A DNA stretch of 64,000 nucleotides from contig JBGARZ010000026.1 of assembly GCA_044229975.1 (NCBI GenBank), positions 62,728-126,727 on the forward strand. Direction: 5' to 3'. The position numbers were made by a program, and so were the translations under genes. The notes beneath the pieces are model-generated. The model saw nothing but the letters and a program-made list of their open reading frames with translations. It was not told the DNA's origin and did no database searches. Numbering within the stretch: the stretch's first letter is position 1; every line of letters begins with the position of its first letter. Shown piece by piece: positions 46,344 to 53,629 of the stretch. Source of the stretch: Polyangiales bacterium. Lineage in GTDB: Bacteria; Myxococcota_A; Polyangia; Polyangiales; Ga0077539.

Positions 46344-47525
46344 TCACGTCACCAGCGGGAGCCGATGCTTGCGCTCGATGCGGGAAGGGTTCTGCCCCGA
46401 GGCGGTCGCAGCCGCCGCCACCCGCCCGTAGGTCCACGACAGGAAGGTCGGGTCGCGCTCTTCGAGCAGCAGGTGCCCGGCCGTGTCGGCGATGCGGGCG
46501 GTGGCCTGCTCGTACCAGCACTGCGTCCCGCCCGGCAGGTGGGTCGTCCCCGTCTCGGCCAGGTTGGCGCAGGCGCACGAGGCCCCGCAGCGCCACTGCT
46601 CGGCGCACTCGTCGCACGCCGGGTCGGCCGGGCCGCGCTTGATGTTCTTCACGCGGATGCGGTCGATGCCCCGGTCGAGGTGCCCGATGACCAGGGTGTC
46701 GTCGCGGTCTTCGCCCACCATGCGGGCGCAGGGGAAGAGGTTGCCCTGCGGCGACACGGCGATCTCGCGCTCGCCCGAGCCGCACGAGTCGCAGCTCGAA
46801 AGCCCGCCCTTGGCCGCCGCGAGGAGCTTGTTGTCGAAGGTCGGCATCGCGATGGGCTTGCCCGCGCGGATGGCCGCCGCGTAGACCACCGCGGCCTCTT
46901 CGAGGCCCTTCTCCCACAGCTCCAGGTGGGCGTCGCTCCACGCGCACTCGAAGGCCGGGTTGAGGATGATCTCCTTGGCGCCGAGCTCGGCCAGGAAGCG
47001 CACGCTCTCGCCGAGCCAGCGAACATTCTCGGGCGACACCACCGCGATGATCTGGAGCGGCAGCCCCGCGGCCAGCATGTTGTGGGCGCCCGCGACCACG
47101 TCGTCGAAGCTCGACCGGCCGCCGCGCTGCGGGCGCGTCGCTTCATGGGCTTCGCGGCACCCGTCGAGGGAGAGCGTGACCTGCACCCCGAGCGCGGCGA
47201 GCCGACGGGCGCGCTCCGGGGTGACGAGCGTTCCGTTGGTGGTGACCGCGAGGCGCAGCCGACGACCTTCACGCGCGGCGCGGTCGCGGGCCTCGTGGGA
47301 GACGCGCTCCATCATGTCGAAGCAGATGAGGGGCTCGCCGCCGAAGAAGCCGAGGTCGACCGGCGCCTCGTCGCGCCACGGCGTCTGCTCTCGCGGCGCG
47401 TTGAAGAGCAGGTCGAGCGAGCGCATCGCGGTGGGCCAGTCCATCTCGCGCCGAAACTTCTCGCCCGTGTAGCAGTACGTGCACGCGAGGTTGCACTCGT
47501 GGGTCAGGACCAGGGTGACATGCAT
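46344..47525 (-). CDS. Radical SAM/SPASM domain protein (anSME/ranthipeptide-maturase-like)
   Basis: CNLACTYC, FFGGEPL, TTNGTL, LSLDG; SPASM CGSG..G.LFPC..CDEC....CGASCAC; AAGGAG RBS. Confidence 0.92.
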   Translation of the reverse strand: MHVTLVLTHECNLACTYCYTGEKFRREMDWPTAMRSLDLLFNAPREQTPWRDEAPVDLGFFGGEPLICFDMMERVSHEARDRAAREGRRLRLAVTTNGTLVTPERARRLAALGVQVTLSLDGCREAHEATRPQRGGRSSFDDVVAGAHNMLAAGLPLQIIAVVSPENVRWLGESVRFLAELGAKEIILNPAFECAWSDAHLELWEKGLEEAAVVYAAAIRAGKPIAMPTFDNKLLAAAKGGLSSCDSCGSGEREIAVSPQGNLFPCARMVGEDRDDTLVIGHLDRGIDRIRVKNIKRGPADPACDECAEQWRCGASCACANLAETGTTHLPGGTQCWYEQATARIADTAGHLLLEERDPTFLSWTYGRVAAAATASGQNPSRIERKHRLPLVT

Positions 47526-47624
47526 GGTGACTCCTTCGCGTGGGGAGAGACCTCGTCATGCTCCCACGCCTTGGACCTCCCCTCCAAGCGCGCTCGCACA
47601 CTGGTAGTGTCATCCGTTGGAGTC

Positions 47625-47914
47625 CAGTGTGCTGGGTCGACACCCCGCCGCGTCCACGCCGGAGTTCACCGTGCCGCCCCCGCGTCCGTCGCGCTCGGTT
47701 CACTCCGGGCTATTTCACGCGGATCGCCCCGCTCGAAGCGGGGCTCCATGCGGACGCTCACGACCGACTGAATGCCTCCGGAAGGTCACACGGAGCCCCG
47801 CTTCAGGCGGGGCGATCCGCGTGAAATAGCCCGGAGTGAACCGAGCGCGACGGACGCGGGGGCGGCACGGTGAACTCCGGCGTGGACGCGGCGGGGTGTC
47901 GACCCAGCACACTG
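47625..47914. repeat. 290-bp palindromic element with 123-bp arms (REPIN/MITE-like)
   Basis: 47625-47747 is the reverse complement of 47792-47914 except for 2 adjacent mismatches; 44-nt spacer. Confidence 0.9.
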
Positions 47915-47938
47915 CCCGCACCCCTCTGTTGGGAGCGA

Positions 47939-48592
47939 TCAGCCCGGAGTGATGTTCCAGACCAGGTCGGTGGTGCCGAGGGGGCCGCTGAAGCGCAGGC
48001 TGAACGACCTCACCCGATCGTCGAGCACCTCGACCTCGCCCCGGTTGGGGCTCCGCAGGTACTTCGGAAACCGGATGCGGAAGGCCTGGCGCCACACCGT
48101 CGTGTACGGGAAGTAGGTTCGCTCGACCGCGCCGGGGCGGGTGATGGCGTCGATGGCCACCGGGGCGACCTCCTCGCGGCGATCGTTGACCAGCAGCACG
48201 CGCCACGCGCTCGCCGGACGGGTGAGCTCACCCCAGCGGCGGTTTTGCGTGTACAGCGCCACGTAGAACTCGTGCTCCTGCTGGGATGATTCGAGGCTGT
48301 GCTGGAGGAGGTCCTGCCGCTCCTGGGTGGAGAGCCGGAAGTCCTGCGCGTAGCGAACCACGTAGGCCCAGCGGAAGTCCCAGCTCTCGTACGTCGCCGT
48401 CACCGCGATGTGATCGTCGAGCCCCTGGAGCTGGTAGTGGTGGCCCTCGCGGGTCCACTCGCGCAGCACGTCTTCGTAGCTCTCGGCCGTGTACGCCCGC
48501 GGCCCCTGGCGCAGGCTCACCGACGCCGGGGTGCACGCCGCCGCCGCGACGACGACACCCAGCGCGAGCGCCCGGCGGGCCACGTCACTCAC
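47939..48592 (-). CDS. Hypothetical lipoprotein
   Basis: Lipobox AAAC; overlaps the pyrE stop; coding-like codon usage. Confidence 0.75.
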   Translation of the reverse strand: MSDVARRALALGVVVAAAACTPASVSLRQGPRAYTAESYEDVLREWTREGHHYQLQGLDDHIAVTATYESWDFRWAYVVRYAQDFRLSTQERQDLLQHSLESSQQEHEFYVALYTQNRRWGELTRPASAWRVLLVNDRREEVAPVAIDAITRPGAVERTYFPYTTVWRQAFRIRFPKYLRSPNRGEVEVLDDRVRSFSLRFSGPLGTTDLVWNITPG

Positions 48593-49151: not shown

Positions 49152-49318
49152 ATACGGGCACCCTTCGTATCGCGCCTTGACCTGCGACAGCAAGCATCGC
49201 CGCCGCGGCCCACGAAAGGCGTGACGCGAGCGCGCGACAAGCAGAGACTGGCCAAGCTGCGGGGTCGTGCGCCCATCGGGTGAGCGTGGGCCGCGCGGGA
49301 AGGGAAGAGTCACCGGCC

Positions 49319-52300
49319 ATGTCCACGAGACCGATCGAGAAACCATCGCGACCCCGCGCACTCTGGGGCATCTGCCTCGGAGCGCTCCTGCTCTTCGGCT
49401 GTACCGACGGAGCGTCGGTGGTCGGAGGCCCGCCCGACGTCCTGGTCACCAACGACCTCGGCTTCGACGCGAGCGCCGACTCGGGCATGGACTCCGGCGT
49501 GGACGTCCCCGTCGACGTCGACCTGCAGGACGGCCCGCGCTGCGGTCCGGGCCAGCTCGTGTGCAACGGGATGTGCGTCTCGGCGACCGTCGACCCCGGC
49601 AACTGCGGCGCCTGCGGCACCCGCTGCGCCGACACCGAGCGCTGCGTCGACAGCGCGTGTCGCACCACCTGCCCCGGCGAGCAGATCGCGTGCCCCGAAG
49701 GCAGCGGCGGCGACGCGGGCGACGCGGGCGGCCGCGTGACCTGCGTGCTCCCGAGCACCGACCTCAACCACTGCGGCGGCTGCGGCCGACGCTGCGCCGC
49801 GGGTCAGGTGTGCTCCAACGGATCGTGCACCACCACCTGCGCCGAGCTGCTCACCACCTGCACGCGTGACGGCGCCTCGTACTGCGCGGACGTTCGTCGC
49901 GACCCGATGAACTGCGGCGCCTGCGGGACGGCCTGCGCCCCCGGGCAGACCTGCGACGCCATGCGCTGCGTGCTCACGTGCACCGCGGGCTTCACGGCCT
50001 GCACCACGGCGGCCGACGCGGGCGCCGACGCAGGCGGCCCCGGCTACTGCGCCGAGCTCCAGACCGACCGCAACAACTGCGGAACCTGCGGCGCCGCGTG
50101 TCCCTCCGGGCAGCTCTGCTCGGGCGGCACCTGCGTCGTGTCGTGCCCCGCGGGGCAGATGGCCTGCGGCGGTTCGTGCCGTGACCTCCAGACCGACCGC
50201 GGCCACTGCGGCGAGTGCGGGCGCGCGTGCGGCGAGGGCCAGGTGTGCTCGGCGGGCGCGTGCGTGACCTCGTGCGGGTCGGGCCAGTCGAGCTGCGGCG
50301 GTTCGTGTCGCGACCTCCAGAACGACCGCGCCAACTGCGGCGCCTGCGACACCGTCTGCGCGGCCGGTCAGGTGTGCACCGGCGGCGCGTGCCAGCTCTC
50401 GTGCGCGTCGGGTCTCTCCAACTGCTCGGGTTCGTGTCGCGACGTGCAGACCGACCGCGCCCACTGCGGCGCGTGCGGCAACGTCTGCGCGGCCGGCCAG
50501 GTGTGCTCGGCCGGGATGTGCGTGACCTCGTGCGGGCTCGGCTCCACCGACTGCTCGGGCTCGTGCCGCGACCTCCAGAACGACCGCGTCAACTGCGGCG
50601 CGTGCGGCGCCGTCTGCGGCGCGGGCCAGGTGTGCTCGGCCGGGATGTGCGTCGTGTCGTGCCCCGCGGGGCAGGTCGAGTGCGGCGGTTCGTGCCGCGA
50701 CACCCTGACCGACCGCGCCCACTGCGGGAGCTGCGGCAACCTCTGCCCGAGCGGGCAGGTGTGCGTCGCGGGCGGCTGCGTCGTGTCGTGCCCGAGCGGA
50801 CAGAACGTCTGCGCGGGCTCGTGCCGCGACCTCCAGGGTGATCGCGCCCACTGCGGCGCCTGCGGCAACGCATGCGGCGCGGGGCAGGTTTGCTCCGGCG
50901 GCATGTGCGTCACCTCCTGCGGCAGCGGCCTCGTGGACTGCGCGGGCTCGTGCCGCGACCTGCTCACCGACCGCGCCAACTGCGGCGGCTGCGGCACCGC
51001 TTGTGGTTCGGGTCAGGTGTGCGTCGGCGGCGCCTGCGTCGTGTCGTGCCCGACGGGGCAGAACGTCTGCACCGGCACCTGCCGTGACCTCCAGACCGAC
51101 CGCGCCAACTGCGGCGGCTGCGATCAGGCCTGCGCCTCCGGGCAGGTGTGCGTCGGCGGCGCCTGCGTCGTGTCGTGCCCCGCCGGACAGAACGTCTGCA
51201 CCGGCACCTGCCGCGACCTCCAGACCGACCGCGCCAACTGCGGCGCGTGCGGGACGGTGTGCGCCGCGGGCCAGGTCTGCTCGGCCGCGGCCTGCGTCGT
51301 GAGCTGCGTCGCCGGGCTCACCAACTGCACCGGCTCGTGCCGTGACCTCACCAGCGACCGCACCAACTGCGGCGCGTGCGGGACGGTCTGCGCCGCCGGT
51401 CAGGTCTGCTCGGGCAGCGCCTGCGTCACCTCGTGTGGCGCGGGCCTCACCAACTGCACCGGTTCGTGCCGCGACGTGCAGACCGACCGCGCCAACTGCG
51501 GCGCGTGCGGAACCGTCTGCGCCGCCGGTCAGGTCTGCTCGGCGGGCGCCTGCGTCGTGAGCTGCGCGTCGGGCCTGAGCAACTGCTCGGGCTCGTGCCG
51601 CGACCTCGACAGCGACCGCGCCAACTGCGGCGCGTGCGGGACGGCCTGCGCCGCCGGTCAGGTGTGCTCGTCGCGCGCCTGCGTCACCTCGTGTGGGGCG
51701 GGCCTCACCAACTGCACCGGCTCGTGTCGTGACCTCCAGAACGACCGCGCCAACTGCGGCACCTGCGGTCGCGCGTGCGCCTCGGGCGAGGCGTGCCTCG
51801 CGGGCGGCTGCGTGGTGTCGTGCCCGACGGGGCAGACCAACTGCGGCGGGTCGTGCGTGACGATCTCCAACGACAACACCAACTGCGGCATGTGCGGTCG
51901 CACCTGCCTCGCGGGCCAGGTGTGCTCGGCGGGCGCGTGCGTGACCACCTGCCTCGCCGGGCAGACCAACTGCTCCGGAACCTGCCGCGACCTGCTCACC
52001 GACCGGGCCAACTGCGGGGTGTGCGCGCGGGCGTGCGGCACGAGCCAGATCTGCGTGGCGGGCGCGTGCGTGACCTCGTGCGTCGCGGGCCAGACCACCT
52101 GCGCCTCGACCTGCGTGTCGACGGCGACGGACCCGGCCAACTGCGGCGGCTGCGGCGTCGTGTGCCCCGGGCGCACGAGCGCCACCACCGTCTGCGGCGC
52201 CAGCGCGTGCGGGTACATCTGCTCGGCGGGCTTCGCCGACTGCGACCTCGCGAGCGGCAACGGCTGCGAGGCGACGCTGGCGACCGACACCGCCAACTGC

Positions 52301-53629
52301 GGCACCTGCGGCAACCGCTGCGCGCCCGCCAACGGCACCGGGGTGTGCACCGCCGGGGTGTGCGGCATCGCGGCGTGCGCGACCGGCTTCGGCAACTGCA
52401 ACGCGACGGTCTCCGACGGCTGCGAGTCCAACACGCAGACCGACGCCAACAACTGCGGCGCGTGCGGGACGGTGTGCCCCGCGGGTTCGACCTGCACCGC
52501 GGGCCGCTGCGGCTTCGGCAACGGCAGCGGCGGAACGCTCAACCCGACCGGCACGCAGACCATCAACGTCATCCGCGCGAGCGTGGTGGGCACGGCGGGG
52601 TCGCCCATCACGACCATCAGCAACGTGACCGGCACCTTCGTCGCGGGTCAGGAGGTGGTGCTCCACCAGACGCAGTGCGACACCGGCGCGGGCACCTACG
52701 AGTTCGGGCGTGTGTCGGCCGTCGCGGGCACCACCGTGGTGCTCCAGAACGCGCTCGGCAGCAGCTACCGCACGGCGGGCGTCTGCCACGCGCAGATCGT
52801 CGTCGTCGCCGAGCACACCAACGTCACGGTGGCGGCCTCGGCCACGCTCACGGCGCCGGCCTGGGACGGCAACACGGGCGGCATCCTCGCGCTCGACGCG
52901 ACGGGTGACGTCAACGTCGCGGGGGCCATCACCATGGACGGGAGCGGGTTCCGCGGCCGCGGCCACGCGTGCATCTACCGGTGCGGGCGCGGCTTCCAGG
53001 GCGAGGGCACCCTCGGCCTCGGCGGCGCCAACATCGCGGCCAACCTCAACGGCGGCGGCGGCGGCGGCGCAGGCCAGGACGACGCGTCGGGCGCCGGCGG
53101 CGGCCACGCGGTCGCGGGCGGCAACGGCGGCGTCGGGACCTGCGGCGTGTGCAGCGAGGCGTGCCCCATCCCCGGCGGTCTCGCGGGCCTCGCGCAGGGG
53201 ACGGCCAACCTGCGGACGGTGGCGTTCTTCGGCGGCGCGGGCGGCGAAGGCGGCTCGGACGAAGACGGCGGCAACCCCGGCGCGGGCGGCGCGGGCGGCG
53301 GCGTGGTGATCATCCGCGCGAGCTCGCTGACGGTGACCACGGCGGGCGTCATCGCGTCGCGTGGCATCCTCGGCGCCAACGGCGCGAGCAGCGCGTGCGG
53401 CGGCGTCGGCTGCGGCATGGGCGGCGGCGGCGGCGGCGCGGGCGGCGCGGTGCGCCTTCAGGTGTCGGGCGTCGCGACCATCAACACCAACCGCGTTCCG
53501 GTGGCGGGCGGCGGCGGCGGCACGGCGACGTGCGGCTCGGCTTCGGGCGGCACGGGCAGCGTCGGACGCATCGGCATCCGCGCGGGCTCCGTGGTCGGCA
53601 CGACGTCGCCGACCTTCGACACGAACTGA
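49319..53629 (+). CDS. Large Cys-rich repeat (Stig1-like) lipoprotein with C-terminal Gly-rich adhesin-like domain
   Basis: Lipobox LFGC; 22 D-x2-[NH]CG-x-C units, mostly at a 43-aa period; C-terminal WDGNTGGILAL...GGGGG. Confidence 0.88.
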   Translation: MSTRPIEKPSRPRALWGICLGALLLFGCTDGASVVGGPPDVLVTNDLGFDASADSGMDSGVDVPVDVDLQDGPRCGPGQLVCNGMCVSATVDPGNCGACGTRCADTERCVDSACRTTCPGEQIACPEGSGGDAGDAGGRVTCVLPSTDLNHCGGCGRRCAAGQVCSNGSCTTTCAELLTTCTRDGASYCADVRRDPMNCGACGTACAPGQTCDAMRCVLTCTAGFTACTTAADAGADAGGPGYCAELQTDRNNCGTCGAACPSGQLCSGGTCVVSCPAGQMACGGSCRDLQTDRGHCGECGRACGEGQVCSAGACVTSCGSGQSSCGGSCRDLQNDRANCGACDTVCAAGQVCTGGACQLSCASGLSNCSGSCRDVQTDRAHCGACGNVCAAGQVCSAGMCVTSCGLGSTDCSGSCRDLQNDRVNCGACGAVCGAGQVCSAGMCVVSCPAGQVECGGSCRDTLTDRAHCGSCGNLCPSGQVCVAGGCVVSCPSGQNVCAGSCRDLQGDRAHCGACGNACGAGQVCSGGMCVTSCGSGLVDCAGSCRDLLTDRANCGGCGTACGSGQVCVGGACVVSCPTGQNVCTGTCRDLQTDRANCGGCDQACASGQVCVGGACVVSCPAGQNVCTGTCRDLQTDRANCGACGTVCAAGQVCSAAACVVSCVAGLTNCTGSCRDLTSDRTNCGACGTVCAAGQVCSGSACVTSCGAGLTNCTGSCRDVQTDRANCGACGTVCAAGQVCSAGACVVSCASGLSNCSGSCRDLDSDRANCGACGTACAAGQVCSSRACVTSCGAGLTNCTGSCRDLQNDRANCGTCGRACASGEACLAGGCVVSCPTGQTNCGGSCVTISNDNTNCGMCGRTCLAGQVCSAGACVTTCLAGQTNCSGTCRDLLTDRANCGVCARACGTSQICVAGACVTSCVAGQTTCASTCVSTATDPANCGGCGVVCPGRTSATTVCGASACGYICSAGFADCDLASGNGCEATLATDTANCGTCGNRCAPANGTGVCTAGVCGIAACATGFGNCNATVSDGCESNTQTDANNCGACGTVCPAGSTCTAGRCGFGNGSGGTLNPTGTQTINVIRASVVGTAGSPITTISNVTGTFVAGQEVVLHQTQCDTGAGTYEFGRVSAVAGTTVVLQNALGSSYRTAGVCHAQIVVVAEHTNVTVAASATLTAPAWDGNTGGILALDATGDVNVAGAITMDGSGFRGRGHACIYRCGRGFQGEGTLGLGGANIAANLNGGGGGGAGQDDASGAGGGHAVAGGNGGVGTCGVCSEACPIPGGLAGLAQGTANLRTVAFFGGAGGEGGSDEDGGNPGAGGAGGGVVIIRASSLTVTTAGVIASRGILGANGASSACGGVGCGMGGGGGGAGGAVRLQVSGVATINTNRVPVAGGGGGTATCGSASGGTGSVGRIGIRAGSVVGTTSPTFDTN

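Follow-up and report, generated by a model that had tools for sequence, protein, structure and literature searches.

A probable composite of an IS1-family MITE and a Y1-type doublet in a Polyangiales genome, with likely promoter targeting

The palindrome and the limits of the insertion

The window analysed here is a stretch of 64,000 nucleotides (positions 62728-126727 of contig C35 in assembly G000, a 10-Mb assembly with 71% G+C that is 93% complete). A long palindrome lies in it between two genes of the minus strand, namely a radical SAM/SPASM gene downstream of the insertion (46344..47525, minus strand), whose best profile match is rSAM_PapB at a score below the cut-off of that model, and an upstream gene that follows pyrE (47939..48592, minus strand), which was described as lipoprotein-like in the original prediction and has no NCBIfam match. 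Window positions 49280-53629 (plus strand), beyond pyrE, encode a cysteine-rich repeat protein of 1449 aa at a distance of approximately 1.7 kb from the SPASM radical SAM gene.

Paired inward from 47625 and 47914, the palindrome gives 108 matches, two mismatches and 13 further matches before a 44-nt spacer at 47748-47791, an inverted repeat far beyond chance and with exactly the arm geometry that had been proposed. Both arm mismatches lie in the loops of the small hairpins, which have the form GCCCCGC-N5-GCGGGGC and begin at 47726 and 47795; CCGGAGTTCACCG at 47659 and CGGTTCACTCCGG at 47696 are also present as described. As RNA, one arm alone folds no better than shuffled sequence (z -1.28). 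An Rfam search with the palindrome returned generic hairpin matches only, all below the gathering score, and no terminator-like site was found.

The insertion extends beyond the palindrome. We place the whole element, a non-coding, MITE-like sequence of 314 bp that we assign to "family A", at 47603..47916 (plus strand), so that the limits given originally were too short by 22 nt on the left and 2 nt on the right; copies of this family usually measure 338-348 bp. Where no target-site duplication had been seen, a degenerate 8-bp duplication borders these ends, with CGCACACT on the left (47595..47602, plus strand) and CGCACCCC on the right (47917..47924, plus strand), identical at 6/8 positions; in the allele of metagenome run X1 the difference T47602C in the left duplication raises the identity to 7/8. 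The extra CACACTGG at 47597-47604, previously read as a complement of the left end, is indeed there, though it is made up of the left duplication and the first two G of the terminal repeat.

The left (L) end (47603..47646, plus strand) carries the terminal GGTAGTGTC and a second, internal AGTGT motif, and is a repeat of IS1-family type that is diverged in this copy. It is followed by the left arm core (47647..47747, plus strand), which is homologous to repeats flanking Y1 tnpA genes and consists of an outer hairpin (47659-47708), a 17-nt linker and an inner hairpin (47726-47744). The 44-nt spacer (47748..47791, no strand) differs among copies and occurs in both orientations relative to the L and R ends. 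The right arm core (47792..47892, minus strand) is the inverted copy, with its inner hairpin at 47795-47813 and its outer hairpin at 47831-47880. At the right end (47893..47916, minus strand) the terminal GGCAGTGT is retained, but the place of the usual R end of ~50 bp is taken by the inner L end in inverted orientation, as a result of which the palindrome is ~22 bp longer in the window copy. We infer that the inner L end was copied over the R end by a template switch, with the junction at the shared AGTGT motif; the reverse case, R-end sequence over an L end, is present at C33:211383.

Removing the element and one 8-mer leaves an empty site with 19 nt between 47597 and 47939, or 21 nt between 47595 and 47939. 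Contigs of metagenome runs X2 and X9, both near-identical to the window, join across the site with exactly these 19-nt and 21-nt gaps, in agreement with the limits given above. The element is absent at the orthologous site in all seven congeners examined, and the same intergenic gap measures 70-85 nt in six of them versus 416 nt in G000. In the seventh (locus L028, G007:C72), an unrelated palindromic insertion of ~120 bp lies at the same intergenic site, just past the stop codon of the upstream gene.

Family A, its arms and the resident Y1 transposases

Comparison of one arm with the genome, as the original prediction had proposed, gave 95 clustered loci, of which 20 scored >100 bits; every one of these 20 is an inverted doublet, the sites are unrelated, and the seven congeners provide the empty sites that were looked for. 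Family A is thus short, non-coding and multicopy, with IS1-type ends or remnants thereof at 19 of the 20 doublet loci. Long palindromes are common in this genome, given that a de novo scan recovered 155 long inverted-repeat loci (20 A, 14 B, 36 C, 7 D and 78 others), the last 78 constituting further uncharacterised doublet families.

The outer frame of most A copies is asymmetric, with L ends that begin GGTAGTGTCC and R ends that begin GGTGGTGTCC; the window copy, though diverged, keeps GG(T/C)AGTGT at both ends. Both ends are recognisable at 15 of 21 loci. The flanking 8-mers of these 15 copies agree at ≥6/8 positions in 13 cases and at ≥7/8 in nine, for which chance would give 1% and 0.1% per copy, respectively; the other six loci are left out of the count.

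In a comparison of 19 copies, from which the C27 copy is left out, the two arms of one copy share 97% identity, versus 90% for arms of different copies, and the best match of an arm is its own partner in 14 of the 19. Likeness between copies is 66% for the spacers (57% when shuffled), 74% for the L ends and 71% for the R ends. Two pairs of copies have spacers that are 100% identical but oppositely oriented relative to L and R. The similarity of the outer ends correlates with that of the spacers (Mantel r 0.52, p 0.0006, 13 copies, after exclusion of the seven of 20 copies with a damaged end). The ends track the spacers, and therefore the unit moved whole and the spacer was inverted afterwards. 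The greater conservation of the arms may reflect selection, repair biased towards the old state or conversion between copies.

Several apparent deletion derivatives of the element were seen. A 101-bp L+R element that lacks the palindrome lies at C32:914522-914622 in G000, while lone L ends followed by arm remnants are found at C2:266855-266911 and C26:86333. Larger transposase-like elements occupy the centres of a C doublet (C23:501286-503086) and a B doublet (C39:198515-200979), for which reason doublets may themselves be insertion targets; the former element is, we presume, IS66-like.

Arms that are ~80% like those of family A flank IS200-like Y1 tnpA genes at C23:54498-54947 (family B) and C34:47422-47859 (family C), so the suggested search for IS200-type genes flanked by the arm does lead to such genes, by way of related arms. 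No tnpA with exact family-A arms was found in this genome or its relatives, and the third Y1 gene of G000 is flanked by D arms unrelated to A. The three resident TnpA proteins (136-150 aa) are single-copy and divergent, carry HVH, W and YxxxQxxHH motifs, the last being the signature of TnpA-Y1 subclass 1.2, and pass NF033573; they reach only 20-30 bits against the RAYT model NF047646, versus the 80 that it requires. Inverted repeats of ≥45 bp are present in 22 of 31 tnpA loci, three of the 31 coming from this genome. Nine hand-picked arms share the inner hairpin, a linker of ~17 nt and the outer hairpin. Of the 18 pairs, 10 show compensatory changes, and the self-complementary structure is conserved in this set. 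The arm of sister family B contains GGGGTCAC, which fits the GGGGWSAS motif, and the A arm has no such motif. A fourth, divergent Y1 gene at C26:70450-72500 lies between long tandem arrays of a ~53-bp unit that are inverted relative to each other, and its motifs, compared by eye, resemble class 3 of Quentin et al.

Outer ends and their distance from promoter-like sequence

Over their first 18 nt, the best family-A L ends share 16 with two complete IS1-like elements. Such complete elements, which have terminal repeats of the GGTAGTG..CAGTTTGA type and 8/8 duplications, were recovered at two of six loci from related genomes (4.5 kb in congener G001 and 5.7 kb in G019) and at nine of 15 phage or plasmid loci (eight distinct), and in metagenome loci L110, L119 and L149 IS1-like genes lie inside an R-type end. 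Of two IS1-like proteins tested, one scored above the PF03400 cut-off and the other had no PF03400 match; both fell below the cut-off of the NCBIfam IS1 model NF033558 (58.6 and 31.4 bits versus 100). "IS1 family transposase" is the annotation in three of four plasmid records. We take the carrier group to be, probably, the passenger-carrying ISMhu11-like branch of the IS1 family. No IS1-like transposase was found in the G000 assembly (93% complete), and when the whole genome was searched for autonomous elements bearing family-A ends, only chance pairs emerged. Genome contigs contained four loci with the long R-end pattern, with no doublet within the 420 nt inspected, and metagenomes contained none with the long L-end pattern; a looser R-end pattern matched at least 121 metagenome loci.

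Among the metagenome matches listed, a 26-bp perfect palindrome, GGTAGTGTCCTAATTAGGACACTACC, is frequent in loci L093-L213, which come from unrelated metagenomes, and 35 of its 65 distinct instances among those matches are flanked by a 7-8/8 duplication, making it a candidate for a very small non-autonomous element. Loci L101 and L159 (~1.2 kb) and L157 (278 bp) have the same ends as this group and 7-8/8 duplications, with unrelated DNA inside; the interior of L101 and L159 holds an apparent remnant of an IS1-like C-terminus.

Doublets also occur between the ends of other transposons. Congeners G001 and G007 carry a homologous doublet between the ends of an ISAs1 element (protein matching NF033564, 329 bits), and the ends of these composites resemble the left and right IS ends about equally, a comparison made as a test of the fold-back idea that both derive from the left end. 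In G000, other outer ends border seven of 14 B doublets and three of 36 C doublets, with 3-bp TNA duplications, read by eye, around five of six two-ended B copies and two of three two-ended C copies. Searches for parent elements of the B and C end types found none, and the TACCGATTC end type was found in this genome only, with no autonomous partner. At locus L287 (G001:C223:82538) a lone IS1-type end stands 2 kb upstream of an arm-flanked Y1 tnpA. A doublet lies in the interval, and in the 16 kb examined no partner end that has a duplication was found.

Of 29 family-A ends (those with <8/10 identity to the terminal motif being excluded), 10 have a hexamer with ≥4/6 identity to TTGACA whose first base lies exactly 15 nt outside the end. 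These are four L and six R ends, versus 0-3 ends at any other offset and a background of 1.9% (p ~3e-9 after 31 offsets). Since the offset was first spotted by eye in family A, the metagenome set provides an independent test. Among the matches listed there, a ≥5/6 hexamer begins at offset 15 in 15 of 130 ends (0-3 elsewhere) and a 4/6 hexamer in 22 of 130 (next highest 11), and a -10-like peak appears at offset 38, that is, 15+6+17. The signal reaches metagenome elements as small as 26 bp, the perfect palindrome of that size being often 15 bp away from a -35 box. In the autonomous IS1-like elements it is weak, with four of 22 ends at offset 15 and up to two at other offsets.

In the window, TTGGAG, an 18-nt gap and GAGCAT form a putative host promoter of the radical SAM gene (47558..47587, minus strand), and TTGGAG starts 15 nt outside the left end. 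This hexamer has 3/6 identity to TTGACA, while the orthologous place in congeners has 4-5/6; a consensus promoter scan at the window insertion called nothing, TTGGAG/GAGCAT included. Because the radical SAM gene retains its own putative promoter downstream of the element, the insertion here probably has little effect on the host. Taken over all copies, the sequence pattern makes it likely that the offset is a promoter-targeting habit of the element. Tethering of the transposase to RNA polymerase would account for it, and direct reading of the hexamer is an alternative.

A composite element and its relation to known systems

We consider it highly probable, from comparison of sequences, that the palindrome belongs to a composite IS1-family MITE that carries a Y1-type doublet and is likely promoter-targeting. 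The arm-spacer-arm doublet of a Y1 TIRtron would once have come to be enclosed by IS1-type ends, after which DDE transposition would have spread it, an IS1-family transposase acting in trans to move the whole element as one piece. Tethering of this transposase at promoters could produce the fixed offset, leading to intergenic landing that leaves the promoter intact. Copying from arm to arm, by template switching or hairpin repair, may keep the inverted repeat near-perfect; the same copying would also flip the spacer, and in the window copy part of the left end would have been written over the right end by it. Evidence at odds with this account includes the identity of the ends between copies, 71-74% versus 90% for the arms, which is odd if movement needs the ends alone. 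Also counting against it are the lack of an IS1-like transposase in the assembly and of a tnpA with exact family-A arms, the NF033558 scores below cut-off, the one IS1-like protein with no PF03400 match, the ISMbu6 likeness of the first 10 nt of the end, the 3/6 hexamer and empty promoter scan at the window copy, the weak offset signal in autonomous elements and the lack of a contig across the whole element. The original description of a REPIN/MITE-like element was right in kind, as the outer ends behave as those of a DDE MITE and the inner doublet is related to Y1-flanking repeats.

The better conserved arms would be easier to understand if the doublet were a plain REPIN or TIR dimer, moved by a Y1 (HUH) transposase and repeatedly inserted into pre-existing small IS1-type MITEs, whose ends would then mark nothing but the target. 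Naked A-type doublets without IS1 ends (C27:83237 in G000 and C97 in G001), spacers in both orientations and the 7/8 duplication around the 101-bp L+R element are in keeping with this. However, ends and spacers are co-inherited, the copies with identical but flipped spacers also have near-identical ends, and no cognate tnpA was found. Moreover, the 101-bp form reads as a deletion product, since ~10 nt of the left arm is kept and the join falls at a GTCC micro-repeat. We therefore judge such repeated insertion to be improbable.

We give slightly less credence still to a carrier from the Mutator superfamily (IS256, ISLre2 or ISKra4) in place of the IS1 family. Published p-MULT3 and some p-MULT4 elements of this superfamily insert 15-17 bp upstream of -35 boxes and make 8-9-bp duplications, the first 10 nt of the family-A end also match the repeat of the IS256-family ISMbu6 (PMC3942029, the repeat in its table S1), and an ISKra4-like gene is present in this genome. 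Nevertheless, ISKra4-like elements, the genome's own included, end in GGGTG or GGGTC and not in GGTAGTG (26 loci), PF00872 is absent from the G000 assembly, and IS1-like genes lie directly inside the same end motif. Three full IS256-like genes were found in relatives; a profile search with PF06782 (ISLre2-type) matched none of the control genomes and carries no weight here.

The original prediction had also considered that the palindrome might act at this one locus as a regulatory RNA or cruciform switch between pyrE-lipoprotein and rSAM-kinase transcription. The two neighbouring genes do run in the same direction, and a transcript of the palindrome would fold into a very long hairpin, but the site is empty in the seven congeners and in two near-identical contigs, 20 unrelated loci carry the doublet, no Rfam family matches at gathering level and there is no terminator-like site, so that a switch is very improbable. 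As for a fold-back assembly artefact, near-perfect palindromes can arise in assembly and no contig from the metagenome runs searched spans the entire element, yet an independent contig of run X1 covers 47561-47742 with two differences, reaching across the left junction and 118 nt into the left arm, pieces of family A occur in other metagenome runs, and 19 other copies have private sequences and spacers as well as target duplications, which leaves this with a negligible probability. Nor was the arm found to match the end of any catalogued IS, in a search that did not extend to ISfinder.

As a composite IS1-family MITE, the window palindrome would be selfish DNA, probably of little consequence to its host. 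Beyond this locus, we put forward a broader proposal tentatively, as one that we would doubt a little sooner than accept. It holds that a widespread IS1-family branch, independently of ISLre2 and ISKra4, docks on promoter-bound RNA polymerase and thereby inserts 15 bp upstream of sigma70 -35 boxes, mobilising whatever its ends enclose, be it a 26-bp perfect palindrome or kilobase cargo; and that REPIN-like doublets of Y1 subclass 1.2 repeatedly gain DDE ends (IS1 here, ISAs1 in congeners and two further types with 3-bp TNA duplications) and hitchhike after their own enzyme is lost. If true, the IS1-like offset would be a second, convergent origin of promoter targeting, with a possible use in non-disruptive integration. 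The findings also tie a Y1 subclass recorded as lacking REPs to large doublet families, which bears on the origin of REPINs from IS200-like elements, and show a non-autonomous class riding the ends of another class more than once, with arm homogenisation and spacer inversion legible in 19 copies from one genome.

Each part has a known relative; the literature searched describes neither their combination, nor the promoter offset for IS1, nor the 26-bp form. That literature, from which ISfinder, TnCentral and subscription papers were left out, contained no report of promoter targeting by IS1, of the family-A end sequence or of MITE-enclosed doublets.

Among the systems known, REPINs and their RAYTs share the inverted doublet with conserved arms and a variable spacer, the extragenic location and the link to a Y1 enzyme (PMC3116915; 10.1101/2021.07.10.451892). 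REPIN arms, however, measure ~20-40 bp, compared with ~100 bp here, and have GTAG/GTGG at the hairpin foot, where family-A arms have (A/G/T)T(A/T)G-C before a hairpin of ~50 nt; the GTAG/GTGG seen at the window element belongs to the outer terminal repeat and not to the arm. The enzymes linked to family A also carry YxxxQxxHH and not the class-2 YxxxNP of Group 2/3 RAYTs, and the family-A unit has terminal repeats and a target duplication.

Closer to the arms are the TIRtrons and TIR dimers with a GGGGWSAS motif described by Di Nocera et al. 2013 (PMC3733652). TIRtrons (TIRYTs) likewise have long, partly self-complementary inverted repeats that flank Y1 genes and occur as dispersed dimers, whereas the family-A dimer is enclosed by DDE-transposon ends and a duplication, and no gene with exact A arms was found. 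The table of Quentin et al. 2018 (PMC6006769) gives "REP: no" for TnpA-Y1 subclass 1.2, and Bertels et al. 2017 (PMC5581495) describe a non-duplicating IS200 Group 3 with abundant flanking 16-mers; the two groups are possibly the same. The resident TnpA proteins resemble them in size, motifs, single-copy state and NF033573 match, but differ in that 22 of the 31 loci here have long two-hairpin repeats and the genome holds dozens of matching doublets. The family-A arm type is probably already partly known, because related elements are described by Quentin et al., Bertels et al. and Di Nocera et al.

Family A has in common with IS1-family elements and MITEs the GGTAGTG-type terminal inverted repeats, the 8-bp duplication and the occurrence of small non-coding derivatives. 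It differs in its interior, a ~245-bp palindrome from an unrelated (HUH) system, and in its insertion at a fixed 15 bp from -35 boxes, for which no report was found for IS1. The closest parallel to this offset comes from p-MULT3 (TnGBS/ISLre2) and some p-MULT4 (ISKra4) elements, which, according to Guerillot et al. 2014 (PMC3942029), insert 15-17 bp upstream of -35 boxes with 8-9-bp duplications, close to the ~15 bp and 8 bp seen here; ISKra4 is also alike in having promoters on either side of the insertion, as around family-A-type insertions. Since the ends and the transposase family of family A are different from those of p-MULT3 and ISKra4 in that account, a promoter-targeting habit of this element would be convergent.
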